Shown here: piece after piece, positions 1 through 64,000 of the stretch
Numbering within the stretch: the stretch's first letter is position 1
Layout of the letters: every line of letters starts with the position of its first letter
Sequence record: MH243438.1
DNA: 64,000 bases
Direction: 5' to 3' (one strand)
From: Escherichia phage vB_EcoM_NBG1
Program-made: the position numbers and the translations under genes
The notes under the pieces: generated by a model
Told to the model about the DNA's origin: nothing
Databases searched by the model: none
Seen by the model: the letters and a program-made list of their open reading frames with translations, nothing else

Positions 1-1028
1 AAGTTGATGAACTGACGCTTAGCATCAATTTGCAATACACGATACACGTCGATAATGTTATAAGAAATATATCGTTGGTGATTGCTTTCACGAAGCTTAG
101 AAATAGGGCCGTCATATTTCAGTTTACCAACGTTCAATTCAAATTCTGAAATGTAATCCAGAGAATACGACGGTTGATTGGTAAAAGAGAATTTTTTGTA
201 AAGGTCAATGTAATCAAGAACAGAGATACCGAACAATGTAATGATTTCACGAGAACCATACATGTTTTCGATAACTTTAACACGAGTTTTACGATGTGGC
301 GATAAACGTTTCGCAGTAGATTCGCCAAAAATATTCTTGATTCGGTTATACACATATGGAATATCAAATGACTCAACGTTCCATCCAGTCAAAATGACAG
401 GAGTTTTCTGTTGCCAGAAGTTGAGATATTCCATCAATAATTCTTTTTCATTATCAAACGGCATATAAACAATTTTGTCGATAATTTCGGATGGAACTTC
501 ATCACCACCTTGTTCTTGAAGCTTAGCAGCGATTTCAATAGACCATTCTTCTACATTACCGTATGGAGAATTCAATAGATCAAATACGTAGAACCTGTCA
601 TCAATTGAGTCATAATGGGTGATAGCATCAATCGGATGTTTTGCTTGTGACGGCTCAGGGAACCCGTCCGGAGATGTTACTTCGATGTCGAAGTTAGCCA
701 CACGAATTTTTGTATGGTCATATTTGATTTCATAGTTATAAGTGTCAGACAAATACGCCAATTTGAAATCGTCCATGCCAAGTGCTTCAAGTCCGATATC
801 TTCCATGCGTTTAATCCATTGGGAAGCATCACGCATATTAGCGAACAGCTTACGAGTACACGGCTTACCGTAGATATCGAAATATTTCGTAGCCTGACTT
901 TCTGGACAATGAGCAAACAGTGATGGTTTATATTCTACTTCACGAGTACGTTCACGGCCATTAGAATCGATGTAACGTTCAAAAATTGAATCACCAATCT
1001 GTTCAACCGTTAAGTAAAATTCTTTCAT
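1..1028 (-). CDS. 43: DNA polymerase gp43, N-terminal ~342 codons (gene continues beyond window edge)
   Basis: Minus-strand ATG at 1026-1028 reads MKEFYLTVEQIGDSIFERYIDSNGRERTREVEY..., matching the T4 gp43 N-terminus; AGGA Shine-Dalgarno upstream; not in ORF track because truncated. Confidence 0.9.
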   Translation of the reverse strand, partial: MKEFYLTVEQIGDSIFERYIDSNGRERTREVEYKPSLFAHCPESQATKYFDIYGKPCTRKLFANMRDASQWIKRMEDIGLEALGMDDFKLAYLSDTYNYEIKYDHTKIRVANFDIEVTSPDGFPEPSQAKHPIDAITHYDSIDDRFYVFDLLNSPYGNVEEWSIEIAAKLQEQGGDEVPSEIIDKIVYMPFDNEKELLMEYLNFWQQKTPVILTGWNVESFDIPYVYNRIKNIFGESTAKRLSPHRKTRVKVIENMYGSREIITLFGISVLDYIDLYKKFSFTNQPSYSLDYISEFELNVGKLKYDGPISKLRESNHQRYISYNIIDVYRVLQIDAKRQFIN

Positions 1029-1109
1029 TTAATTTCCTTTAGACGAGTTATTGTCTTTTGTTTGTTGATGAACTTATTATACTCCAAATGGGACCGAAGT
1101 CCCATTGCT

Positions 1110-1478
1110 TTAATTACCAATTGTATATTTTGCTTTCAGAGTCCAGTCATCTTTCTGTTTAAAAGAGATAACACGGAAGTTATTAGTCAGGCCAAACAGA
1201 TCTTCACGAGCGGAGTCTTCAATAACAATCAAGCCCCAGTCTTCAAGCAACTGAGCAATCGAATCACGTCGTTGGTAGTCTTCACCATTGATATCAACTT
1301 GACGTCCGTCCATACGCAGCATTTCTTTAAAGTGGACGATGTAGTATTTACCTTGCTTTTGGAGGATATGACAGGACTGATAAAGGATTTTATCCTTGTT
1401 ATTAGCGATACCCATACGGGTCAGAGTCTCTTTGACTTTCAGAAAATCTTCAGGGTTCTTCAATTTAATTTCGATCAT
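1110..1478 (-). CDS. regA: RegA translational repressor
   Basis: MIEIKLKNPEDFLKVKETLTRMGIANNKDK... 122 aa from internal Met of track ORF; close match to T4 RegA. Confidence 0.85.
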   Translation of the reverse strand: MIEIKLKNPEDFLKVKETLTRMGIANNKDKILYQSCHILQKQGKYYIVHFKEMLRMDGRQVDINGEDYQRRDSIAQLLEDWGLIVIEDSAREDLFGLTNNFRVISFKQKDDWTLKAKYTIGN

Positions 1479-3083: not shown

Positions 3084-3770
3084 TTAGAAGTCGTGAGTAG
3101 AATCGGCTTCCATCGCAATAACATAACTTACTTGAGAGCTTTCAAACTTAGCTGCAACTTTATCACCAGCTCCCCACAACATTACTTTATAGTTACCTGG
3201 CTGGATTTTCATATTAGCCATATTGATTACGAAGTTAAAGTTATTAGAACCGTCATAATCAGTAAGAGTCAAAGAATACTTAGGACGAGTTAGTCCGGAA
3301 TCTTCAACTTTATTATAGCCATTGATAACAATTTTACCATCTTTATTTGTAATAGCAATTGTATCAATCTGAAGACCACGTGAAACTCGAAGCAATTGTT
3401 GAAGGTCTTCAGCTTTAATTTCAGTAATCACAGAAGCCACTGGGAATTGAATTGGCTTATTAGGAAAAACAATGGTGCTCTTGTCGGCAGCAGGCCAATA
3501 AACTGTGGAACGTGTATCTGCAATTTTAATATTGCCATCAGTATGCATTGAAATTTCGGCATCATCAGACACTAGACTCAAAATGCTTAAGAAGCTATTC
3601 AAATCATAAAGTGCTACGTCAAAATCAATTTCATCAGAGATATTTGCTTCCGCATAAGTGGTGCCATTAACTGCACGAGTCATAATAAATTTACCTTGAC
3701 TCAGCAGAATGCCAGAGTTAATAGAGGCAAAGTTTTTCAGAATAGCGATAGTATCTTTAGACAGTTTCAT
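3084..3770 (-). CDS. 45: Sliding clamp gp45
   Basis: MKLSKDTIAILKNFASINSG... 228 aa from second Met; near identity to T4 gp45. Confidence 0.9.
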   Translation of the reverse strand: MKLSKDTIAILKNFASINSGILLSQGKFIMTRAVNGTTYAEANISDEIDFDVALYDLNSFLSILSLVSDDAEISMHTDGNIKIADTRSTVYWPAADKSTIVFPNKPIQFPVASVITEIKAEDLQQLLRVSRGLQIDTIAITNKDGKIVINGYNKVEDSGLTRPKYSLTLTDYDGSNNFNFVINMANMKIQPGNYKVMLWGAGDKVAAKFESSQVSYVIAMEADSTHDF

Positions 3771-3812: not shown

Positions 3813-4229
3813 TTATGCAGCAACCATCTGCTTTTTAATAGCTTCAGGCAGTGATTCAATATATTCTGGAATTTTAGAAGCAACAATTTCGCCAGCTGCA
3901 ATTAGTTGTTCGTCGGCATCAACACAGTAAAAATCTTCAAGGCGTTCAGAACCGTCTTTATCAAGAACGATTTTAGCACCTGCTTCGATAGAATCTTTAT
4001 AGTGCTTACGCATCAAATGAATCCACATATCAGACACATCGTTATCAATAAAACCATAAATCATAAAACGAGTTTCTTGTGGCAAAGATTGGAGTTTTTT
4101 AGCACTTGCGTCATCACAATGCAGGACCCATGCTTTACGAACACGATTATGGTTATGCGGGTTAGCGTCAGTACGGATAGAAGTAACTTTCAGATCAGCA
4201 GCGGTAAAACCTTTAGCAGTAGTAAACAT
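3813..4229 (-). CDS. rpbA: RNA polymerase-binding protein RpbA (by position and size)
   Basis: 138-aa ORF directly upstream of gene 45 as in T4. Confidence 0.55.
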   Translation of the reverse strand: MFTTAKGFTAADLKVTSIRTDANPHNHNRVRKAWVLHCDDASAKKLQSLPQETRFMIYGFIDNDVSDMWIHLMRKHYKDSIEAGAKIVLDKDGSERLEDFYCVDADEQLIAAGEIVASKIPEYIESLPEAIKKQMVAA

Positions 4230-4241
4230 ATTATTTCTCTC

Positions 4242-4442
4242 TTATTCGTAGAAGTCGGTAACTGTCCATGCGGAATTGCGATTAGACATTATTTTATTAT
4301 ACTCATCTTTAAAAGCAGATTTGAGCATTTGTTCAGTAACAATATGTTCTTCACCTGAAAACGTATTGGTCAAAACATATTTTTTAATTTCAGGGACAAC
4401 GAGAAGATGTTGTCCAGTTGAATACTCCATGTTGTTCTCCAT
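4242..4442 (-). CDS. hypothetical protein (T4 45.2 position)
   Basis: 66-aa ORF, co-oriented, tight spacing. Confidence 0.45.
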   Translation of the reverse strand: MENNMEYSTGQHLLVVPEIKKYVLTNTFSGEEHIVTEQMLKSAFKDEYNKIMSNRNSAWTVTDFYE

Positions 4443-4484
4443 TTAATTTGATGTGGTCATTATAACCACATCGTGTTAAAGCGT

Positions 4485-6173
4485 TTATGAAACAGTCATT
4501 ACAGTAAATCGTCCAACTTTGCTCATCTGAAGATGTTGTCCATAACGTTGAGGGTCATGGTCTCTATGAGAGATAATGAACACATTAGTATTTTGTAAAC
4601 TACCAAGGATGGTATCTATAGCCTTAACAGCTTCAGAATCCACAGCGCCGTCAAAAACTTCATCTAAAATCAGAGTGTTGATTTTAACACCAGAAACCTT
4701 TTCAGCAATATCTCGCCATGTAAACAACAGTGCGATATCGATACGTGCTTTTTCACCTTGACTAAATGAAGCATAACTGAACTCTTCACGGCCACGTGAT
4801 TTTATAGACTCATTGAATTCTTCGTCAATAGAAAACACGTAATCGGCTTCCATGATTTTAAGATAATGGTTAATCTGCTTATTGAACAAAGGCACGTATT
4901 TTTTAATGATAGCACCTTTAATACCAGAATCTTTTAACATATCTGTGATAATACCACGATGGTATTTTTCAAGAACGATGTCTGATTTTGTTTTAATGAT
5001 TTTATCAAGTTCTTTTTGAAGCAAAGCTATCTCATCAGCATGGTCGATAAATTCTGCTGAGGCTTGCTCTATTGCAGCTTTAACTTTCTTAGCTTTATCA
5101 ATAGTGGCAATCATTGCTTGTTTCTTGGTACGAATATCAGATGCAAGGTCCTGTTTAGTCTTAACATTAGCTCTATATTCGTCCACTAGGACACTCAGAT
5201 TATCTCTGTGACAGGTAAGTTGCTCGAATGAGTGATTACATTCATGAAGCTTATCGGTAATCTTAGAGACAATAGGATCACCCTGGTGCAACTGTGATGC
5301 ACAAGTAGGACATGTACCGCCATCATGATACATCTTAATAACTTTGTTATATGAGTCAATTTTAGATTTAATCAAGAATGCTTCTTGTCCTATCTTGTCG
5401 AATGCCTCAGTAGGGTCTTCATCAAGAACGATATTAAGTAGTCGCTCATTAGCTTCTTCGATTTCTGCTTTTAATGAACGAGCTTCTTTGGCTAGGTCGT
5501 CATACATATTCTGTAGACGCGCTACATTATCACCGGATAATTTCTTTTGACGTTCGATATTCTCATTATAAATCTTAATTTGTTGGATAACACCATCTTT
5601 CTTGGCGTCGAGAACTTGCCCCTGGGAATTAAGTTCTCGAACTTGAGACTTATTGATTTTATCCATTTCAGCGAGCGTGCCAACTTCTAAAAGGTCTTCG
5701 ACAAGTTTTCTACGAGCAGGGGTGCTAAGAGCCATGAAAGGGGTATACCCTGCCGTCCCAAGCACAACGATTTGTTTAAAAGACGCGTATGACATTCCGA
5801 TGCTACGTTCAAATTCTTCTTGGAAGTCACGACTGCTGGCAGATTCATCGAGACGAACACCGTCAACGGAGATTTCGAAAATATTGGGCTTTTGGCCACG
5901 TTTAATGAAGTATTTTTTATCATCGAATTCCATCCAAAGCTCAACTAAGAGCTCTTTCTTGTTCGTGCTATTAATGATTTGTCCTTTCTTAACATCACGA
6001 AATGGTTTACCGAAAAGTCCGAAAGTAATGGCTTCTAACATCGTAGATTTACCACCGCCATTTTTACCAGTGATTAATGTCTTTTGGACTTTATCTAATT
6101 GGATATCAATAGGATTCCCACCTACCGACATGATGTTTTGATAACGAACACGATTTAATTTAAATGATTTCAT
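4485..6173 (-). CDS. 46: Recombination nuclease ATPase subunit gp46 (SbcC/Rad50-like)
   Basis: 562 aa, Walker A GKNGGGKST, long coiled-coil middle, C-terminal signature/Walker B LILDEVFDG. Confidence 0.9.
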   Translation of the reverse strand: MKSFKLNRVRYQNIMSVGGNPIDIQLDKVQKTLITGKNGGGKSTMLEAITFGLFGKPFRDVKKGQIINSTNKKELLVELWMEFDDKKYFIKRGQKPNIFEISVDGVRLDESASSRDFQEEFERSIGMSYASFKQIVVLGTAGYTPFMALSTPARRKLVEDLLEVGTLAEMDKINKSQVRELNSQGQVLDAKKDGVIQQIKIYNENIERQKKLSGDNVARLQNMYDDLAKEARSLKAEIEEANERLLNIVLDEDPTEAFDKIGQEAFLIKSKIDSYNKVIKMYHDGGTCPTCASQLHQGDPIVSKITDKLHECNHSFEQLTCHRDNLSVLVDEYRANVKTKQDLASDIRTKKQAMIATIDKAKKVKAAIEQASAEFIDHADEIALLQKELDKIIKTKSDIVLEKYHRGIITDMLKDSGIKGAIIKKYVPLFNKQINHYLKIMEADYVFSIDEEFNESIKSRGREEFSYASFSQGEKARIDIALLFTWRDIAEKVSGVKINTLILDEVFDGAVDSEAVKAIDTILGSLQNTNVFIISHRDHDPQRYGQHLQMSKVGRFTVMTVS

Positions 6174-6653: not shown

Positions 6654-7669
6654 TGTGTTGCCTCAATATAAAGTTCGTTGGAATATTTGACCAGCGCTTC
6701 TCTGTCTTCGTCTGAGATATCTGGAATCGCGTCAATATATTCTTTAATGATATCTTGAAGTGATTTAATCTCGATTTCCTGGTCATCATCAGATTCAACA
6801 CTGTTATCAACTTTAGAAACCATACGAAGAGAGTGAACTACTTTTTCAAGTTCAGATTCAAACTTAGTCAACTCTGAATCAATTTCTGATACTATAACAC
6901 GTACGGCTAGATTAGTATAATCAGAATAATTAATTTTGCCTTTAAACGGATAAGTGATTCGTCGATGCCATGTTGTTTCATTAGGAATAAATTCCATACG
7001 TTCAACATCAGTGTCAAATACCCAGAATCCGCGCGGGTCGTTCTCGTCACCTGCAGTAAGGGTCCATGGTGTCCCAATATATTTGACGTTAGCAGCTTCA
7101 GAGATTGTGTGGAAGTGGCCAGACCAGACTTGTTTATAGGTCTTTAAGAAATCAGGTTCAAGCCCATGAGACTTCATTCCTTTATAGAAATAAAAGCCAT
7201 TCAGTTCCCAGTGCCCAACACAATACGCTGCGGAAGAAGTCTTGATGTGCTCTAAGATTTCACCTGTATTTTCTTCACACATCCATGGAACGATATCAAT
7301 CAGACATCCGTCAAAATCTACAGTAGTCGGATGCTCGTAAATAGTAAAGTTTTCAAATTGAGTTAACAATTCAGAAACAGTGTTAGGTGTTATTGTATTC
7401 TTAAACGCCATGTCATGGTTTCCTATCGTGACATGAACGTGAATGCCTGCTTTAGAAATCATATCAACGATTTCACGATTGAATTCCATTGTACGATGTG
7501 TTATTGCTTTACGGACGTCAAACCAATCGCCGTACTGAATCCAAGTTTTAATCCCGTGTTTCTTAGAGTATTCAATTGCTTGACGAATACCATCACGTTG
7601 AATATCTTGAACCCATGGGTCGTCTTGTTTGACTCCGATATGGAAGTCGCCTAAGTGCAAAATTTTCAT
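6650..7669 (-). CDS. 47: Recombination nuclease gp47 (SbcD/Mre11-like phosphoesterase)
   Basis: 339 aa, MKILHLGDFHIG and GNHD metallophosphatase motifs. Confidence 0.9.
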   Translation of the reverse strand: MKILHLGDFHIGVKQDDPWVQDIQRDGIRQAIEYSKKHGIKTWIQYGDWFDVRKAITHRTMEFNREIVDMISKAGIHVHVTIGNHDMAFKNTITPNTVSELLTQFENFTIYEHPTTVDFDGCLIDIVPWMCEENTGEILEHIKTSSAAYCVGHWELNGFYFYKGMKSHGLEPDFLKTYKQVWSGHFHTISEAANVKYIGTPWTLTAGDENDPRGFWVFDTDVERMEFIPNETTWHRRITYPFKGKINYSDYTNLAVRVIVSEIDSELTKFESELEKVVHSLRMVSKVDNSVESDDDQEIEIKSLQDIIKEYIDAIPDISDEDREALVKYSNELYIEATQ

Positions 7670-7713
7670 ATTATTTCCTCATTAGTTAATTCATTCTATC
7701 ATCCGTTTATAAA

Positions 7714-7739
7714 GCAAAAAAGGAACTCCGAAGAGTTCC
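7714..7739 (-). terminator. Rho-independent terminator upstream of gene 47
   Basis: Minus-strand hairpin GGAACTC-TTCG-GAGTTCC followed by TTTTTTGC. Confidence 0.55.
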
Positions 7740-7912
7740 TATCCACATAGTACACCGTACAGAGGCTCATTTGAACTTTTAAATCGAATGGGCTTGTATG
7801 TAATAGTTCCTTCGGCTTTAGCTTTATCATAAGACTCTTTAAAACGTCTCATTCTTTCTGCTTTGCCTTTACGGATTTTATCGAAATTTTCAGAAGTCGG
7901 GATGTTCGTCAT
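7739..7912 (-). CDS. small hypothetical protein (57 aa)
   Basis: MTNIPTSENFDKIRKGKAERMRRFKESYDK...; below track cutoff, hand-translated. Confidence 0.3.
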   Translation of the reverse strand: MTNIPTSENFDKIRKGKAERMRRFKESYDKAKAEGTITYKPIRFKSSNEPLYGVLCG

Positions 7913-7951
7913 GCATAAGCACCTCTCAGAAAATGCCTAAATCAATTTCTC

Positions 7952-8173
7952 TCATCGTTTCCACCATTTCTTAACTTGAAATGAATCAACCCACACGAGT
8001 TGTTTTGGGTCTGCCTTTACAATAGGCGGACAAATTTCTGTAATAGAACCGTCGTGATATTCCTTTTCAGAAATTTTAACACAAAGAGGACCTCCCAATT
8101 TAAGGGTGAACCCTGCGTTCAGCTTCAGACGTTTAAACTTTGTTTGAACTAGCGCCATTAATGATGTCCTCAA
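7952..8173 (-). CDS. hypothetical protein
   Basis: 73-aa ORF in 47-55 interval. Confidence 0.35.
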   Translation of the reverse strand: MRTSLMALVQTKFKRLKLNAGFTLKLGGPLCVKISEKEYHDGSITEICPPIVKADPKQLVWVDSFQVKKWWKR

Positions 8174-32094: not shown

Positions 32095-32424
32095 TTATAC
32101 TCTAGGCTTTTGAGCTTGTTTGGTATTGGATTCCCATGCGGCTTTGGTAATTTTGTTAGCGGCATAACCAAAGGCATTAGATAGAACACCTTTAGAGTTG
32201 AATACATCCAATCCAATAAGTACACCGGCTGTGTTAAATTTAGGAGCAAAGTACGCATTAGTTTTAGAAAGAGCTTTTTTCAATTCAGGGTCTTGAACCA
32301 AGCCATCAAAAACGCCTTTACTATTTACTTTGTATGTTACTTTGGGATTTTTACCTTCTTCGATAGCAGCTTTCTGTTCCGCAGATAATGTAACTTCAGT
32401 GATAAACTCCTGATATGTTTTCAT
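32095..32424 (-). CDS. Internal-protein-like capsid protein with N-terminal targeting sequence
   Basis: Starts MKTYQEFITE, the conserved T4 internal-protein targeting sequence. Confidence 0.6.
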   Translation of the reverse strand: MKTYQEFITEVTLSAEQKAAIEEGKNPKVTYKVNSKGVFDGLVQDPELKKALSKTNAYFAPKFNTAGVLIGLDVFNSKGVLSNAFGYAANKITKAAWESNTKQAQKPRV

Positions 32425-32449
32425 TTTGTTCCTATTGTTTTAATTTATG

Positions 32450-32764
32450 TTATTCTTTAGGGAAGTTTTTAGAGTATGCATCATAAAGTTTATTACCAAT
32501 ACGACGGAAGACTTTAGCTGCAAAACGGTTTTCAGGGTTTTTAATCATGATTTGCATCATGTAAGTTCCTGCATCCGAAAGAGCTTCTTCATAGTACCCA
32601 TTAATTTCTTTAAGAGTCCTACGTTTACCACCAGGACCATCAACAGTAATTTTCCATTTACCTGTAGAAGTGCGGCTCGGTGGCTCAACTTGTTCAATCC
32701 AAATATAACCACCTTCAACGCGTTGGTTGGCGGATTCTGCAATAAATTCTTTATACGTTTTCAT
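32450..32764 (-). CDS. Internal-protein-like protein
   Basis: Starts MKTYKEFIAE. Confidence 0.6.
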   Translation of the reverse strand: MKTYKEFIAESANQRVEGGYIWIEQVEPPSRTSTGKWKITVDGPGGKRRTLKEINGYYEEALSDAGTYMMQIMIKNPENRFAAKVFRRIGNKLYDAYSKNFPKE

Positions 32765-32828
32765 TTTTTGTTTCCTTGTTTGTTTTGATAGAGTAATTAT
32801 ACCATATTAATACTTAAGCGTAAACAAT

Positions 32829-33089
32829 TTAAGCTTTACCGCCAGAAATAATTCCGAAGTTGTTAAAATCGTATCCAGTATCGTCAACATCCACTTTAGG
32901 ACTTGCTACAACATAAGCAATTTCACTACGTTTTGCATAGGTGTTGATTTCTTTACCATCGCCACCTAAGAAAGAATACCCATTACGTTTTAATGAGCCA
33001 AAGTCTTCGGCATCACCAATGAAAGCTTTAACTTTAAATTTAGGACATTTGGCATCTGCTTCAATGATAAATTCTTGATACATTTTCAT
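32829..33089 (-). CDS. Internal-protein-like protein
   Basis: Starts MKMYQEFIIE. Confidence 0.55.
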   Translation of the reverse strand: MKMYQEFIIEADAKCPKFKVKAFIGDAEDFGSLKRNGYSFLGGDGKEINTYAKRSEIAYVVASPKVDVDDTGYDFNNFGIISGGKA

Positions 33090-33095
33090 TTTTCC

Positions 33096-33509
33096 TTAGT
33101 AAATTGATTTACCATAGTATTTGTACCAAGTCGGACGTTGAGCAATTTTTTCATCTAAGCGTGCTTGACTTATCGCAATGGACTCTTCGGACGGGATGTA
33201 ATTATTACGAAATTCTACAGGAATGTCGGAAATATCCTGGACTGTCGTGTCCTTGATTTTGAAACCACGTTTCAAACATTCGGCTATTAGCTCGATTTGA
33301 CGTAAACGTAAAAATTCGAGTTTGTCGTAAAAGAATGTTACGTGACCTGTGCCTAAGATAAATGTTGGAGAGATTTTAAAATCTTTTACACGTTTACCAT
33401 TTTGAACATGTTTACGGACTGCACCAAATACGCGTGGTAATTCACGATACTCAGCCATAAGATGTTGGTCGGACAGTTCAGAAACAAGTGTTAAATTGAT
33501 ACGAGTCAT
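33096..33509 (-). CDS. denV: Endonuclease V (pyrimidine-dimer DNA glycosylase)
   Basis: [35 protein letters not shown]... close match to T4 DenV. Confidence 0.9.
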
Positions 33510-33513
33510 AATT

Positions 33514-33566
33514 TCCTCCAAGTAGTTGATAGATGTATAGTATCAAAGTCCTTGGAGGAAGTAAAC
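33514..33566 (-). promoter_or_regulatory. denV early promoter with anti-SD/SD stem
   Basis: Minus strand GTTTAC-TTCCTCCAAG-...TACTAT...-CTTGGAGGAA-ATT-ATG; 10-bp perfect inverted repeat. Confidence 0.55.
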
Positions 33567-33567
33567 A

Positions 33568-33849
33568 CTATTTTTCTGAAGCGCCTGAAATATATTTTTC
33601 AAGACGTTGTTTCATTAGCGAGCCGTTCTTAGCGATTTCTTCTGGTTTATCGCACATACGCAACAAGGCTTCAAGCTTAGCGATATCGCTGGTACGTTCA
33701 AATTTGCGAGTATCTATCTTACTAGCAAGTTCAGAAATACGTGCTAATAGACTTTCGGCTTCAACCAAAGCTGCACCTAACTTAGTTGCAAATGTGTCAG
33801 TAGCTTCATTAAGAATAGATTCTGATAAAAATTCACTATATGTTTTCAT
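33568..33849 (-). CDS. Internal-protein-like protein
   Basis: Starts [10 protein letters not shown] at internal Met of track ORF. Confidence 0.55.
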
Positions 33850-36534: not shown

Positions 36535-36592
36535 AATATTCTCCTCATGTTTTAATAGGACTACTATAATATATCCCTATCAGTTTGTACAC

Positions 36593-36811
36593 TTATTTTG
36601 ACATTTCTTCGATGTCACGACGATACCCATCACGAACTTCACGAAGAGCTTCAAGGCCACACATAGGCTCGATACCAGTAATGTGAACTTGATTAATCTG
36701 ATACTCTACATCTTCTAACTGAGCGAAAACATAACGACGTTCTGCTGCACAACCGGGTTTAGCTTTACCGAAACGTTTATTCAAAGTAGTCATTTTTATA
36801 TCTCCATTCAC
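36593..36811 (-). CDS. hypothetical protein
   Basis: 72-aa ORF. Confidence 0.45.
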   Translation of the reverse strand: MNGDIKMTTLNKRFGKAKPGCAAERRYVFAQLEDVEYQINQVHITGIEPMCGLEALREVRDGYRRDIEEMSK

Positions 36812-36873
36812 TCATTTGTTTTGATAGGTCTATAGTATCAACAACTACAGACCTTGTAAACTGTTTTGTGAAA

Positions 36874-41779: not shown

Positions 41780-41865
41780 AATATTTTCCTCATGTTTTTA
41801 TAGGTCTATAGTAACACATCTAGGGAAGAAGTAAACAACTTTATGAAATATTTTTATGCCCTAGA

Positions 41866-41896
41866 TGCCAAAAAGCCCCAACCTTTCGGAAGGGGC
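41866..41896 (-). terminator. Rho-independent terminator closing the tRNA transcription unit
   Basis: Hairpin GCCCC..CC-TTTC-GG..GGGGC followed by TTTTTGG; sequence copy of terminator at 26286-26316. Confidence 0.55.
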
Positions 41897-42571: not shown

Positions 42572-42648
42572 TGGCCGAGACAGAAGGATTCTAACCTTCA
42601 ACCTACGGATTAGAATTCCGTTGCTCTATACAATTGAGCTATGCCTCG
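42572..42648 (-). tRNA. tRNA-Arg (anticodon UCU)
   Basis: 77-nt cloverleaf folded by hand with 7-bp acceptor stem, GCTC/GAGC D-stem, anticodon loop AUUCUAA, T-arm GAAGG-TTAGAAT-CCTTC, encoded CCA. Confidence 0.7.
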
Positions 42649-42654
42649 AATATA

Positions 42655-42728
42655 TGACCCAGACCAGATTCGAACTGGTAACCTTTCCCTTATGAGGGGA
42701 CTGCTGCTAACCATTGAGCTACAGGGCC
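42655..42728 (-). tRNA. tRNA with CAU anticodon (Met or Ile2 type)
   Basis: 74 nt, anticodon loop CUCAUAA, T-arm ACCAG-TTCGAAT-CTGGT; one acceptor mismatch and unclear D-stem in my reading. Confidence 0.6.
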
Positions 42729-44183: not shown

Positions 44184-44232
44184 TTGTTTTGATAGGACTA
44201 CTATAACATAGTCCTATCAGCATGTAAACTAC

Positions 44233-44520
44233 TTACAGAAGAGTTTTTGCAATAATTTTAAGCTGAGCTACAGAAATATGCTTAGCTTTAAACAGTGCAG
44301 TCTCTTCGGCCGGAGAGATAACAATAGTAGCGCCGTCTTTCTTAGCAGACCATCCATCCCCTAAGTAAACAGTACCTTTTACTTCTTCACCGTCAACCAG
44401 ACTAATCATTGGTTTACCCTCACGTCCTTTATTTGCTTTAATAACTTCGGAAGTAAGGGTTGCTTCGGTCAGAGTAGAAACGTTAGCAACAGGTGATATA
44501 AATTCTTTATAGGTTTTCAT
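44233..44520 (-). CDS. ipI: Internal protein I-like
   Basis: 95 aa starting MKTYKEFIS; positioned upstream of 57B as T4 ipI. Confidence 0.6.
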   Translation of the reverse strand: MKTYKEFISPVANVSTLTEATLTSEVIKANKGREGKPMISLVDGEEVKGTVYLGDGWSAKKDGATIVISPAEETALFKAKHISVAQLKIIAKTLL

Positions 44521-44597
44521 TTTATTTCCTTGAGGTTGTTTATTTGATAGGATGATAGTAACACACCATCATCCTTATGTAAACTGTTTTGTGAAAA

Positions 44598-45283
<686 letters not shown>

Positions 45284-58241: not shown

Positions 58242-60046
58242 TGAAACAAAATATTAAAATTGGTAACGTCGTTGATGACGGACAAGGCGATTACCTTCGT
58301 CGAGGTGGTGAAAAAATAAATGAGAACTTTGACGAAATCTATTATGAATTAGGTGATGGTGAAGTTCCTTACGCCGCTGGTGCGTGGAAGACTTATGATG
58401 CGGCTGATGGTCTTAATCTTAAGGCCGCTTGGGGTAAATCTTATGCAATTAATACTACTTCTGGACGAGTTTCGGTAAATCTTCCTAAAGGGACAATTGC
58501 AGACTATAATAAAGTTATTCGTGCTCGTGACGTATTTGCAACTTGGAACATTAACCCTGTTACTTTAATTCCGGCAAACGGAGACACGATTAAAGGTTCT
58601 TCATCTCCGGTAGAAATTAACGTTCAGTTCTCTGATTTAGAATTAGTTTATTGTGCTCCTGGACGTTGGGAATACATCAAGAACAAACAAATTGATAAAA
58701 TAGTTAGCTCTGACATTAGTAATGTTGCTCGTAGAGAATATCTGGTTGAAACCCAAGGTCAGACCGATTTCATGGATGTTTTTAATGGAACCTCTTATAA
58801 CGTTAACAACATTCGCGTAAAACATCGTGGCAACGAATTGTATTATGGTGATGTATTCAGTGATAATAGTGATTTTGGTTCTCCAGGCGCTAATCCTGGT
58901 GAACTGGTTGCACTCGATGGATTTAATATTAGATTACGCCAACCATGTAATGTTGGCGACACTGTACAAATTGAGACATTCCTAGACGGTGTTTCTCAGT
59001 GGCGTAGTTCATATACTCGTCGCCAAGTTCGCATTTTAGATAGTAAATTGACTGCTAAAAAGTCTATTGACGGAAGTATTTACGTCACTGATTTGAGTAC
59101 ATTCAGGTCTATTCCATTTACAGCATTTGGTATTAATCCTACGGAACCACCTAACCCGAATTCATTAGAAGTTCGCTTCAATGGTATTCTCCAAGAATTA
59201 GCTGGTACTGTTGGAACTCCTATTTTCCGTTGTGAAGGTGTGGATGCTGATTCTGAAGAGTCATGCGCTAATCTCGGTGGGACATGGACTCAATCGTATA
59301 CAGATTATGCGATTGAATATACTGATAATATCCCTAGCGCAATTCTGTTTGACCGTCAATTTGAAGACCAAGACATTATTACCATCACATGGTTTAATAA
59401 CGATTTAGGAACTCTTCTTGAAATGGAAGAAATCCTTGATGCCACTGACGAGAAATATGTTTCTCAAGGGTCTAACATTGAAATTACTGGCGATGTTGCA
59501 TTAACCGATTTTGATAAAATCGGCTGGCCTAATGTAGAACCTGTTCCTACATATGAACGTGAATTCTCGACTATCTCAGCAATATTTGACACAATTTATC
59601 CTGTTGGGACTATTTACGAAAATGCGGTTAACCCTAATAATCCAGCCACTTATTTAGGTTTTGGTTCGTGGAAAATTTGGGGACAAGGCAAAGTATTAGC
59701 AGGTTGGAATGATGACGCGTCGGATCCTAATTTTGCATTAAATAATAATGACCTTGACATCAATGGTAACCCTACTCATACCGCAGGTGGTACCGTTGGT
59801 GTAACAACCATCACATTAGAAAATGCTGATTTACCAGCTACACAAACCGATGAAAAGGTTCTTATTTCTGATGATAATGGTACAGTAATTATAGGCGGTT
59901 GCCAATATGACCCGGATGAAGAAGGTCCTATTTACACTAAATATCGTGAAGACCATGCAAAGACTAATGGATCTCATGTTCCAGCGCGTTCTATAACTAA
60001 TATTCAGCCATCTATAACTGTATACCGTTGGGTAAGGATTGCATAA
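58241..60046 (+). CDS. 10: Baseplate wedge protein gp10
   Basis: 601 aa; position and size. Confidence 0.8.
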
Positions 60047-60705
60047 TGACTGTACTTAATACAAAGGCGGGAGTTATTTCCCGTCATGCTGATTTTTTGA
60101 ATTACAGAAAAAATCCAGATCAAATTGATGTTTTAAACAACCAAGCTGTAGGTTCCGTGACTATTTCTCAGTTAGCTCGCGGTTTTTATGATGCTAACGT
60201 AGAATCTGCAATAAATGATGTCCATAATATGGCACGAGCTGATATTGGTACTGTTGTCACAAACACTTCAGGCATATCGCCTGAAGGTACAGCACAAGTT
60301 GATTATTGGACTTTTTCTGGTGATGTTCTCGACGATACTTTGGCCCCTGGAACGCCGGTCGTTATTAACGTATTTGGACTTGCGGTTAAAGCAACAATCG
60401 GTATGACTGATAACGAATTAACGGCACAAGTTCGTATAGCTTTACAAGAAGCCATTGCTAATCAAATCGCTATTTCTTCTTATAAAGACCATCCGTCCGA
60501 AGGTAATAAACTTCAGGTGACATATTTAGATAACCAACGTCATGTGTTGCCAACATATGCTTCGTTTGGTGTAACAATTTCGCAAGAAATTTTGTCTGAA
60601 GCAAAATCCGGATACGGAACATGGAATTTATTGGGTGCCCAAACGGTTACTCTTGATAACCATAATACTCCTACCGTTTTCTACCACTTTGTGAGAGCCT
60701 CATGA
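60046..60705 (+). CDS. 11: Baseplate wedge/short tail fibre connector gp11
   Basis: [22 protein letters not shown]... 219 aa from internal Met; matches T4 gp11. Confidence 0.85.
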
Positions 60706-62285
60706 GTAATAACAATACATACCAACACGTTTCAAACGAATCCATTTACGTTGAATTCGACCCTACGGGGTCGAATTTTCCAGATACAGTCACTAATGTC
60801 CAAGCCGCATTAGCTGCTATTTCTCCTTCAGGTGTTAATGGTGTACCGGAAGCAACAACTACTACACCAGGAATTATTCAAATAGCTACTCCACAAGAAG
60901 TTATTGATGGATTAGATAATAGTAAAGCTGTTACTCCGGCATCACTGAATGCTCGTCTACAATATCCTAATGCAACCGAAACTCAATATGGCTTAACTCG
61001 TTATGCTACTGAAGATGAAGCAGTAACAGGAACTATTGACGATGCATCAATTACTCCGCTTAAATTGAATCAAAAAATAGACGATGTATTTCAGACAAAA
61101 GTGTCAACAGAAGCAACAAATGGTGTAATTAAAATTTCAACTTCTGCTGCGGCATTAGCTGGTTCTGATGATACAACGGCAATGACCCCGTTAAAAACAC
61201 AACAATTAGCAATTAAACTTATTTCACAAATTGCTCCAAATAATAGTGACGCCACCGAATCTATTACCGGTGTTGTTCGTTTGGCTACAGTTGCTCAAGC
61301 ACAACAAGGCACCCTGCGTGAAGGCTATGCAATTTCACCTTATACCTTTATGAATTCAGTAGCATCAGAAACTAATAAAGGTGTCGTTAAACTAGGGACA
61401 CAGACTGAAGTAAATAGTAACAACTCTTCAGTTGTAGTGACCGGCGCAACATTAAACGGACGTGGTGCTACAACTTCTTTACGTGGAGTTGTTCGTTTAA
61501 CTACACAAGCGGGTAGCCAATCAGGTGGTGATGGTTCTTCTGCCCTTGCTTGGAATGCTGATGTTATCCACCAACGAGGCGGACAAACTATTAATGGCAC
61601 GCTTCGCATTAATAATACGTTGACGGTTGGTTCTGGTGGCGCTAATATAACGGGTAATGTCAATATGACCGGTGGTTATATTCAAGGCAATCGTATTGTG
61701 ACTCAAAATGAATTAGACCGAATTCTTCCAGTTGGCGCTATTACAATGTGGGCTGCAGATAGTTTACCGAGTTCTGACTGGCGCTTCTGTCACGGTGGGA
61801 CCGTTTCTGCTTCAGAATGTCCGGTATATGCTTCCAGAATTGGGACACGATATGGCGGTAGTTCTTCTAACCCAGGCTTGCCTGATATGCGTGGATTATT
61901 TGTTCGTGGCTCAGGTCGTGGCTCTCACTTAACAAATCCAAATGTTAATGGTAATGACCAGTTTGGTAAGCCTAGATTAGGTGTAGGTTGTACTGGTGGA
62001 TATGTTGGTGAAGTACAGAAACAACAGATGTCTTATCATAAACACGCTGGCGGATTTGGTGAGCATGATGATTCTGGAGCATTTGGTAATACCCGTAGAT
62101 CAAATTTTGTTGGTACACGTAAAGGACTTGACTGGGATAACCGTTCATACTTCACCAATGACGGATACGAAATTGACCCGGCATCACAACGAAATTCCAA
62201 ATATACATTAAATCGTCCTGAATTAATTGGAAATGAAACACGTCCATGGAACATTTCTTTAAACTATATTATTAAGGTAAAATAA
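60702..62285 (+). CDS. 12: Short tail fibre gp12
   Basis: 527 aa, same length as T4 gp12. Confidence 0.85.
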
Positions 62286-63733
62286 TGACTGATATAACTC
62301 TGGTAGATTTACCATATGTTGACGGTCCGCCAGACGCGGGTCAGAGTCGTATTGAATGGATTAAAAACGATGAAGAAATAACAGGCGCTGACACAAAATA
62401 CGGTTCTGAAGGTGTAATGAACCGTCCTATTGTTGAAGTTCAACGTAACGTAGAAGCGTTAGATGTTAATATTAAAACTATAGCATCTTCTTTGAATACG
62501 GCCAATGAAGATATCAAAGTTATTCAAGGTATTTTAGATGTTTCTGGGGATGTTGATGCTCTTGCACAGATAGGTCAGAACACCCAAGATATCGATGTCA
62601 TTAAAGTCACAGTTCAAACCCATGCTAGTGAATTGAATGATTTGAATGAACATATTGATGCGAATACTGATGATATTGGTGTTTATAATCAGGAAACAGA
62701 TTCAGTTTATAGAACGGTTCGTAACGACCTGCTTTGGATTAAAAATGAATTAGGACAATATACTGGTCAAGATATTAATGGGGTTCCTACTCCAGGAAAT
62801 GATAGCACTGGTATGAAACGCCGTATTATGACTAATAGCTCCGTAATTGTTGACCATGGCGTTCGATTAACTGATTTAGAAACTAAATTTGCTGATTCTG
62901 ATGTTGGCTCTTTAACTATTGAAGTCGAACACTTGCGCGAAGAAATGGGGCCTCGTACTTCTTTCACTACCCCGGTGTTTAGTCGTCTTTCCAGTATTGA
63001 TTTAACTTTGTCGCGTCAAAATGCTGACTTGGATGGCATTAAACAGTCTATTGGGTATCCTAATACGACTTCTATTATTACTACCACTAATGCAAATAGT
63101 TCAGCAATAAATGACATTAATCTTGAGCTCAATCAATCAGGTGGTATTAAACCTCGTTTGACTACGGTAGAAACTGCCATTGGCGCTGATGATTTGCCTA
63201 CTACAATCCAAGGACGTATTAAACTCAATACTGATGCTATCGGAGCATTGAACACTGTTGTCGGCTCTGATTCTTCGTCAGGACTGCGTTTTAATGTGTC
63301 ATGGTTAAATAACGTAGTCGGTGTTGACGCTTCAGGTGGGAAACCGGAACCAGACGGCTCTTTGCTTTATCGTACTCGAGAGCTTGAAGGAACTATCAGT
63401 GGGATGAGTAATGACATTCAGAACATTCAAACTGATGTTGGGACTAATAGCACAGGAATTAAGGGTTCTGTAAACACATTAAATACTCTTATAAATGGCA
63501 CCAACCCAAATGGTTCGACTGTTGAAGAACGCGGTATATTGCCTACAGTTAAAAGTCATGATACGACAATTAATGGTTTAACTTCTAGAATTGCTACTCT
63601 TGAAACTGATTTGGCCGCTGCAGAAGCTGAAATCCAAACTCTTAAGGAAGCTGGATATATTGAAGATGCTCCTTCAGACGGTAAATTCTATGTTCGCAAA
63701 GATGGTGCATGGGTTGAACTTCCTACAGCTTAA
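62285..63733 (+). CDS. wac: Fibritin (whisker) wac
   Basis: 482 aa coiled-coil-rich; ends ...GYIEDAPSDGKFYVRKDGAWVELPTA (foldon-like). Confidence 0.85.
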   Translation: MTDITLVDLPYVDGPPDAGQSRIEWIKNDEEITGADTKYGSEGVMNRPIVEVQRNVEALDVNIKTIASSLNTANEDIKVIQGILDVSGDVDALAQIGQNTQDIDVIKVTVQTHASELNDLNEHIDANTDDIGVYNQETDSVYRTVRNDLLWIKNELGQYTGQDINGVPTPGNDSTGMKRRIMTNSSVIVDHGVRLTDLETKFADSDVGSLTIEVEHLREEMGPRTSFTTPVFSRLSSIDLTLSRQNADLDGIKQSIGYPNTTSIITTTNANSSAINDINLELNQSGGIKPRLTTVETAIGADDLPTTIQGRIKLNTDAIGALNTVVGSDSSSGLRFNVSWLNNVVGVDASGGKPEPDGSLLYRTRELEGTISGMSNDIQNIQTDVGTNSTGIKGSVNTLNTLINGTNPNGSTVEERGILPTVKSHDTTINGLTSRIATLETDLAAAEAEIQTLKEAGYIEDAPSDGKFYVRKDGAWVELPTA

Positions 63734-63739
63734 TGAAAA

Positions 63740-63753
63740 GGGCCTTCGGGCCC
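63740..63753 (+). other. Stable stem-loop (UUCG tetraloop) after wac
   Basis: GGGCC-TTCG-GGCCC; no clear U-tract. Confidence 0.4.
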
Positions 63754-63765
63754 TAAAGGATTTAT

Positions 63766-64000
63766 ATGTCAGGTTATAATGCACAAAACCCTAAAGAATT
63801 AAAGGACGTAATATTACGTCGTTTAGGCGCTCCTATTGTAAATGTTGAATTAACTACAGACCAAATTTATGATTGTATTTCACGAGCGTTAGAACTTTAT
63901 GGCGAATACCATTTTGACGGGTTGAATAAAGGTTTCCATGTATTTTTTGTTGATGACGAAGAAAAATACCGTCACGGCGTATTTGATATGCGTGGTTCTA
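63766..64000 (+). CDS. 13: Neck protein gp13, N-terminal part (continues beyond window)
   Basis: [57 protein letters not shown]... matches T4 gp13 N-terminus. Confidence 0.85.

Follow-up and report, generated by a model that had tools for sequence, protein, structure and literature searches.

We analysed a 64,000-nucleotide window of Escherichia phage vB_EcoM_NBG1 (MH243438.1), in which five small minus-strand open reading frames (ORFs) share an N-terminal leader of the kind that targets the internal proteins (IPs) of phage T4 to the capsid. The five genes, called here ipA (32095-32424), ipB (32450-32764), ipC (32829-33089), ipD (33568-33849) and ipI (44233-44520), all begin with MK[T/M]YxEF[I/L] at the extreme N-terminus, and the leader matches MKTYQEFIAE, the capsid-targeting sequence (CTS) of T4 IPII and IPIII. 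A six-frame regular-expression search of the window for K.Y.EF[ILVM] returned exactly five sites, all immediately after the initiator methionine, against an expectation of 0.06 (calculated from how often each amino acid occurs in long ORFs) or 0.07 (from 300 shuffles). The longer pattern MK.Y.EF[ILVM] appeared in none of the 300 shuffles. An original prediction, made from the sequence alone, had claimed five ORFs with a common N-terminus, and all of them are present at these positions with a leader far above chance. It had also assigned the interval 32095-33849 to four genes of the family. Four are indeed found there, but the interval also holds denV (33096-33509, minus strand; PF03013), the pyrimidine-dimer glycosylase gene between ipD and ipC, which is neither an internal protein nor a member of the family.

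Beyond the leader the proteins diverge, as had likewise been claimed: BLASTP between most pairs, T4 IPII and IPIII included, aligns residues 1-10 or 1-17 alone. The longer alignment, between ipA and ipB, covers 72 residues at 32% identity (E 2e-4 in a seven-sequence database), and both proteins match phrog_3966. We rejected paralogy of this pair, as profile comparison of the two families with hhalign aligned only 12 leader columns. Within the leader, M1, K2, Y4, E6 and F7 are invariant, while synonymous codons differ between the genes (ACA, ACG or ACC for T3, GAG or GAA for E6, ATC, ATT or ATA for I8), suggesting that conservation acts on the peptide and does not reflect recent copying of DNA. 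Distant homologues of the cargoes (32-55% identity; WG01, CC31, CJ20 and RB3) all retain the leader.

The ~2.5-kb denV/e region is 97.6% identical to that of phage RB69 and up to 98.9% identical to those of other Mosigvirus coliphages, and at least 80% of it is present in 66 phage records. By sequence, the source phage is an RB69-like Mosigvirus of the T4 family. The gene order in the window is that of RB69 (NC_004928), vs.8 - 123c - 124c - 125c - denV - 127c - e. In T4 the same locus reads vs.8 - denV - ipII - ipIII - e, with ipI located elsewhere, between tRNA.4 and 57B. The five genes occupy both classical T-even IP loci, vs.8-denV-e and 57B-tRNA.4, and the synteny of these loci is shared with T4, RB69, RB3, SP18, WG01, CC31, CJ20 and Bas37. 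The start of ipC is 6 nt past the denV stop codon, and that of ipA 25 nt past ipB.

The product of ipI (95 residues, reading from 44520 to 44233) starts MKTYKEFISP. Its residues 20-95 match the whole 76-residue Pfam model IPI_T4 (PF11634) with an E value of 1.3e-50 and 169.7 bits (cutoff 25), and the match is confined to ipI, the other four ORFs having none. A predicted 19-residue propeptide ending LTE|A would leave a mature IPI* of 76 residues with an isoelectric point (pI) of 9.0. In length, in its place beside 57B and in having a propeptide of 19 residues that closes with (L/I)TE|A, ipI agrees with T4 IPI, whereas 7 of the 19 propeptide positions differ (MKTYKEFISPVANVSTLTE in ipI vs. MKTFKEFTSTTTPVSTITE in T4). 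The mature forms differ at four residues. Four mature differences from T4 IPI have also been reported for RB69 IPI, a GmrSD inhibitor whose specificity they may or may not shift (PMC6024577).

The protein encoded by ipD (93 residues, 33849 to 33568) belongs to the Ip5 family. We placed its start at the ATG used by homologues, which overlaps the stop codon of e (ATGA); the ORF called by the program extends to an upstream TTG. Over 84 residues it is 48% identical (E 9e-24) to Ip5 of RB3 (RB3_140), itself identical to bas37_0261. A 15-residue propeptide followed by alanine is predicted, with a mature form of 78 residues (pI 8.1), and this 15-residue design is common to ipD and Ip5, a protein named, like Ip10, by Repoila et al. 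(1994). The mature N-terminus is probably A16, because the (L/I)xE at residues 13-15 is retained in every ipD/Ip5 variant (among them the frameshifted RB69 leader, a variant from the databases that lacks Glu10, and Ip5 with ITE15|S), while residue 10 is not always Glu. In RB3 and Bas37, Ip5 lies in the ipI locus, whereas ipD lies here between e and denV, so one cargo family can occupy either IP locus.

The remaining three genes have shorter predicted propeptides. The product of ipA (109 residues, 32424 to 32095), of the RB69ORF123c family, would be cut at MKTYQEFITE|V to a mature form of 99 residues (pI 9.7), a part that is 100% identical to RB69 ORF123c. The family occurs in 90 phage records, and the annotated ones among those listed are called 'hypothetical', with the exception of ESCO10, in which a ~32% homologue is labelled 'RNA polymerase ADP-ribosylase'. 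Its distant relatives are solely ~32-39% homologues in Dhakavirus WG01 and similar phages, with the leader kept, and a full HMMER scan of 1.8 billion representatives added a single further family cluster, a WG01-type 119-residue protein. The other HMMER matches were long repetitive proteins, which we took as compositional. The product of ipB (104 residues, 32764 to 32450), of the Ip10 family, has a predicted propeptide MKTYKEFIAE|S and a mature form of 94 residues (pI 9.6). It is 72% identical (E 1.9e-44) to Ip10 of Shigella phage SP18 (gp124), which is annotated as 'similar to Ip10 of Bacteriophage Pol', and homologues at 48-55% identity, again with the leader, occur in Enterobacter phages such as CC31. 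The product of ipC (86 residues, 33089 to 32829), of the RB69ORF125c family, has a predicted propeptide MKMYQEFIIE|A and a mature form of 76 residues (pI 6.4). The RB69 copy is named 'internal head protein' in RefSeq, and the gene is found in 217 phage records, with two copies in some.

The T4 prohead protease, gp21, cuts after (L/I)xE. This motif closes every propeptide in the set, as ITE10|V in ipA, IAE10|S in ipB, IIE10|A in ipC, LSE10|S and then LNE15|A in ipD, and LTE19|A in ipI, and it is conserved in homologues. The predicted mature proteins span 76-99 residues, and four of the five are basic, ipC being the exception. The leader had originally been read as a T4-type capsid-targeting sequence, and that reading is supported by the match to the IPII/IPIII leader, the position of the genes in the two T-even IP loci, the (L/I)xE sites and the Pfam identification of ipI as IPI. 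In T4, the 10 N-terminal residues of IPIII are enough for a protein to be packaged (Mullaney & Black, 1996, via PMC9026906 and PMC3012670).

All five genes are intact in the window and carry Shine-Dalgarno sequences, and T4-early-type promoter-like elements on the minus strand lie near them. The element upstream of ipB (32796-32824; consensus match only) has the form TTTACG-17-TATAAT with a TG. The gap of 25 nt between ipB and the ipA gene behind it makes co-transcription of the pair probable. Between ipD and denV, TTTACT-17-TACTAT with a small stem-loop (33537-33565; hairpin of -9.7 kcal/mol, z -2.55) is likely the promoter for denV-ipC, again by consensus match. Upstream of ipI, a consensus-matching TTTACA-17-TACTAT (44549-44583) holds a 12-bp stem-loop between its -35 and -10 hexamers (-18.3 kcal/mol, z -4.17; none of 200 shuffles as stable). 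A second early-type element immediately downstream of ipI (44200-44228) resembles the one upstream of RB69 ipI, so that ipI is flanked on both sides by sites of the general form TTTAC-N17-TAnnAT. We infer the timing of expression from these consensus matches. Repoila et al. (1994), as cited in a later paper (PMC2839356), described polymorphic IP loci with promoter/stem-loop elements. The element upstream of ipI is similar to these IP-associated early-promoter/stem-loop elements, which are analogous to the PeSL regulatory cassettes (Arbiol et al., 2010, PMC2839356). In the window, early-type sites flank ipI and precede ipB and denV-ipC, and the crossover described below maps to the leader-coding part of a cassette, not to the promoter part.

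Comparison with RB69 shows how the repertoire changes between close relatives. RB69 ORF123c, ORF124c, ORF125c, ORF127c and ipI are the same genes in the same order as in the window, at 97.6% DNA identity, and the mature parts of the shared proteins are 95-100% identical except for the frameshifted C-terminus of ORF124c. RB69 differs in having variant or damaged leaders, a truncated ORF124c and seven leader-bearing ORFs rather than five, the two extra being ORF156, beside ipI, and ORF149c. Neither has a cargo homologue in the window, and BLASTN shows both RB69 segments to be missing from it. In a three-way alignment, the window is identical to the region upstream of RB69 ORF156 up to ATGAAAACCTAT and then follows RB69 ipI. 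The junction of this presence/absence polymorphism (44498-44524, minus strand) lies in leader-coding DNA, where the two BLASTN blocks overlap by 27 bp, and is the footprint expected of homologous exchange between cassette heads. The arrangement without ORF156 is the common one, with 80% or more of the locus found in one place in 262 records. Cassette order also varies between genera: in CJ20 and SP18 the Ip10-like gene and the ORF125c-like gene have traded places. The original prediction called the family expanded, a term to be qualified: RB69 has seven such ORFs, and PMC2839356, citing Comeau 2007, already counts more than 30 IP variants by 2007.

The RB69 reference has further peculiarities at these loci. 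ORF149c, a 146-residue leader-bearing ORF (MKTYAEFLTE...; positions 7551-7991 of RB69 sequence L004), stands apart from the two classical IP loci, with e.8 on one side and the tRNA genes on the other. Neither it nor ORF148c is present in the window, where 76 bp (41794-41869) take the place of RB69 segment 6883-8081. RB69 ORF127c has a compensated frameshift inside its leader (MKTYMNFYQNLSLNE), and ORF124c a C-terminal frameshift (90 vs. 104 residues). The RB69 copies of ORF123c, ORF124c and ORF127c (positions 1696-2025, 2094-2366 and 3169-3450 of RB69 sequence L001) differ both from the window copies and from the forms that predominate in the databases, reflecting either real decay in RB69 or sequencing errors.

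Alignment with T4 IPI, IPII and IPIII had been proposed along with the original prediction; it pairs ipI with IPI, but the other four share only the leader with IPII and IPIII, their BLASTP alignments stopping at residue 10-18. IPII and IPIII (Ip2 and Ip3, inhibitors of the ECOR21 and ECOR17 GmrSD variants) also share the denV/e locus with the window genes, and IPII is similarly small; prohead loading, gp21 cleavage and the injection route are presumed to be the same. In T4, both genes lie on the e side of denV, whereas the window has three cassettes on the vs.8 side. WG01 and CJ20, unlike the window, carry IPIII-like and IPII-like cargoes. Deep protein searches with the window cargoes returned relatives in T4-like phages only, and PHROGs placed the four non-IPI cargoes in 'internal head protein' or unknown-function families only.

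Published work gives these proteins a plausible function. T4 IPI inhibits the GmrSD type IV nuclease of CT596 (PMC6024577, PMC12373910), and each of T4 Ip1, Ip2 and Ip3 blocks a GmrSD variant of its own and gives no protection against the others (PMC12373910; also PMC9391042). The authors of PMC12373910 expect the remaining genes at the two Ip loci to act against GmrSD variants as well. Provided in the cytoplasm, IPIII does not need its CTS to work (PMC9391042). According to a recent preprint, the leader-bearing Bas37_0260 inhibits McrBC (bioRxiv 10.1101/2025.11.20.689424). We found no homologue of Bas37_0260 in the window; its neighbour bas37_0261 is Ip5, the relative of ipD, for which the sections of the preprint consulted report no phenotype. 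The cytosine of Mosigvirus DNA is arabinosylated, yet BrxU, an enzyme of the GmrSD family, cuts such DNA and restricts a Mosigvirus (PMC13390438), which would give these phages a reason to carry such inhibitors. The original idea of several injected effectors with unknown targets fits the published Ip1-3 inhibitors and Bas37_0260, but it does not extend to the fifth protein, IPI, whose target is known.

A scan of viral metagenome contigs (IMG/VR) for leader-coding sequence matched at least 120 stretches and gave at least 110 distinct complete ORFs, in at least ~48 cargo families besides the references. Many of the leader matches listed come from contigs whose size is not the ~170 kb of T-even phages, and several of the cargoes combine a very basic character with low complexity. 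Two of the environmental leader-bearing ORFs among these matches (positions 754-1311, plus strand, of contig L074 and 3985-4524, plus strand, of contig L013) carry cargoes that resemble enzymes: a cytidylyltransferase-like one (PF01467, E 1e-5) and a 2H phosphoesterase of LigT/2'-5' RNA ligase type, which matches Acb1 weakly and below threshold. If truly packaged, these would be injected enzymes; the leader may also be a chance N-terminal resemblance.

Taken together, we put the probability at about 0.8 that the window encodes five T4-type IP genes built as a CTS joined to unrelated small cargoes, whose products are injected anti-nuclease proteins and whose repertoire is turned over by recombination. 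By extension from T4, the CTS would bind the scaffolding core of the assembling prohead, trapping each protein inside, and gp21 would cut after (L/I)xE, at residue 10 in ipA, ipB and ipC, 15 in ipD and 19 in IPI. The mature proteins of 76-99 residues would then be ejected into the cell with the DNA. There they would act as first-line inhibitors of host nucleases attacking sugar-modified cytosine DNA, an activity that others have shown for IPI and that the other four may share, with distinct GmrSD-family or other type IV restriction enzymes as the most likely targets. Homologous recombination between the repeated promoter, ribosome-site and CTS-coding segments that head the cassettes turns over the repertoire, as the comparison with RB69 shows. 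The analogy with T4 makes it very probable that the five are CTS-loaded, gp21-processed and injected. That the four uncharacterised cargoes specifically inhibit nucleases of type IV or a related kind is only slightly more likely than not.

Several points weigh against this interpretation. Packaging and cleavage of the five proteins are read across from T4, and the genes for the gp21 protease and the scaffold lie outside the window, which ends near gene 13; the complete RB69 genome encodes gp21, gp22, gp67 and gp68, and identity to RB69 is 97.6% in the denV/e IP interval and ~94% for the ipI locus. In the RB69 reference, the counterpart of ipA (ORF123c) has no Glu10 (FIAAV vs. FITEV), and the cut after residue 10 is therefore not conserved throughout. 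The exact T4 late promoter TATAAATA was not found upstream of any of the five genes, which have early-type promoter-like sites only, and expression during head assembly is assumed. Searches of Pfam, NCBIfam and PDB sequences returned nothing significant for the four non-IPI cargoes, and AlphaFold models of ipB and ipC, built from shallow alignments, are unreliable, with predicted local distance difference test (pLDDT) values of 49.3 and 45.2. The targets of these four cargoes are a guess by analogy, and in the literature we searched, we found no mention of these RB69 ORFs by name.

It is also possible, though we hold this tentatively, that at least one of ipA, ipB, ipC and ipD is injected to inhibit some defence outside the set of GmrSD variants on which T4 Ip1-3 act. 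Alternative targets may include a nuclease adapted to DNA with arabinosyl-cytosine, as in Mosigvirus, or a first-responder system that does not work by restriction. If this were true, the leader would be a general delivery tag; among the metagenome matches listed it heads at least ~48 unrelated cargo families, enzyme-like ones included.

The main rival is that packaged IPs are mainly physical, neutralising or organising the DNA in the head or helping its ejection. This would suit the basic character of four of the five predicted mature forms, the very basic, low-complexity cargoes among the metagenome matches listed, and the ~1000 IP molecules embedded in T4 DNA (PMC3012670). It does not suit ipC, which is near neutral, and all three T4 IPs and Bas37_0260 are specific inhibitors of type IV nucleases (PMC12373910; 10.1101/2025.11.20.689424). 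Moreover, cargoes that are unrelated, patchy in distribution and exchanged between close relatives fit an arms race better, and we regard a mainly physical role as improbable.

Far less credible is the proposal that conservation of the shared 5' end concerns its DNA or RNA, serving recombination as a linker or the initiation of translation, with no targeting role for the peptide and with the proteins acting only inside the cell. The junction of the ORF156 polymorphism does fall inside the leader-coding segment, the upstream segment with promoter and ribosome-binding site is repeated too, and the genes stand behind early-type promoter-like sites. Yet the synonymous differences around invariant residues indicate selection on the peptide, the protease motif always follows the leader, and the 10-residue T4 peptide alone is sufficient to package foreign proteins (PMC9026906, PMC3012670). 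That the set includes ORFs in decay or without function, left over from a hyperplastic region, as the C-terminal frameshift of ORF124c, the compensated leader frameshift of ORF127c and the loss of Glu10 from ORF123c in the RB69 reference might suggest, can practically be dismissed, given that the window copies are intact, have Shine-Dalgarno sequences and are 96-100% identical to majority forms across tens to hundreds of phage genomes.

Other features of the window bear on its surroundings. Gene 57B (44598-45053, minus strand), directly upstream of ipI, encodes an Acb1 anti-CBASS 2H phosphoesterase (PF23474, E 8.5e-59), placing the ipI locus in a small anti-defence neighbourhood. The window has only two tRNA genes (Arg-TCT and Met-CAT; 42572-42728, minus strand), as does RB69; at the same locus T4 has eight, and RB3 and Bas37 have ten. 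Between the blocks aligning to RB69 ORF133c and ORF134c, ~274 bp (36581-36854) are missing from RB69. Identity to RB69 is 93-96% from nudE through ipI to gene 3 and 97.6% in the denV/e IP interval, and just 75-77% in 59480-64000 (baseplate, short tail fibre and fibritin; genes 10-12 and wac), a contrast that, judged by identity, is mosaicism in host-range determinants.

The tag, the two loci, the diversity of cargoes and the shuffling of cassettes have been known since 1994-2010, and nothing here is conceptually new. The value lies in naming four conserved candidate injected anti-restriction proteins, rather than a new kind of system, in a lineage well represented in GenBank. IP cargo families with known targets number only four (Ip1, Ip2, Ip3 and Bas37_0260), and the four other cargoes in the window, conserved in 90 to about 500 sequenced phages, are candidate new inhibitors of type IV restriction, a class relevant to host range in phage therapy. 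Because internal proteins reach the cell together with the DNA, ahead of all phage gene expression, they decide the survival of T4-family phages against modification-dependent host nucleases.

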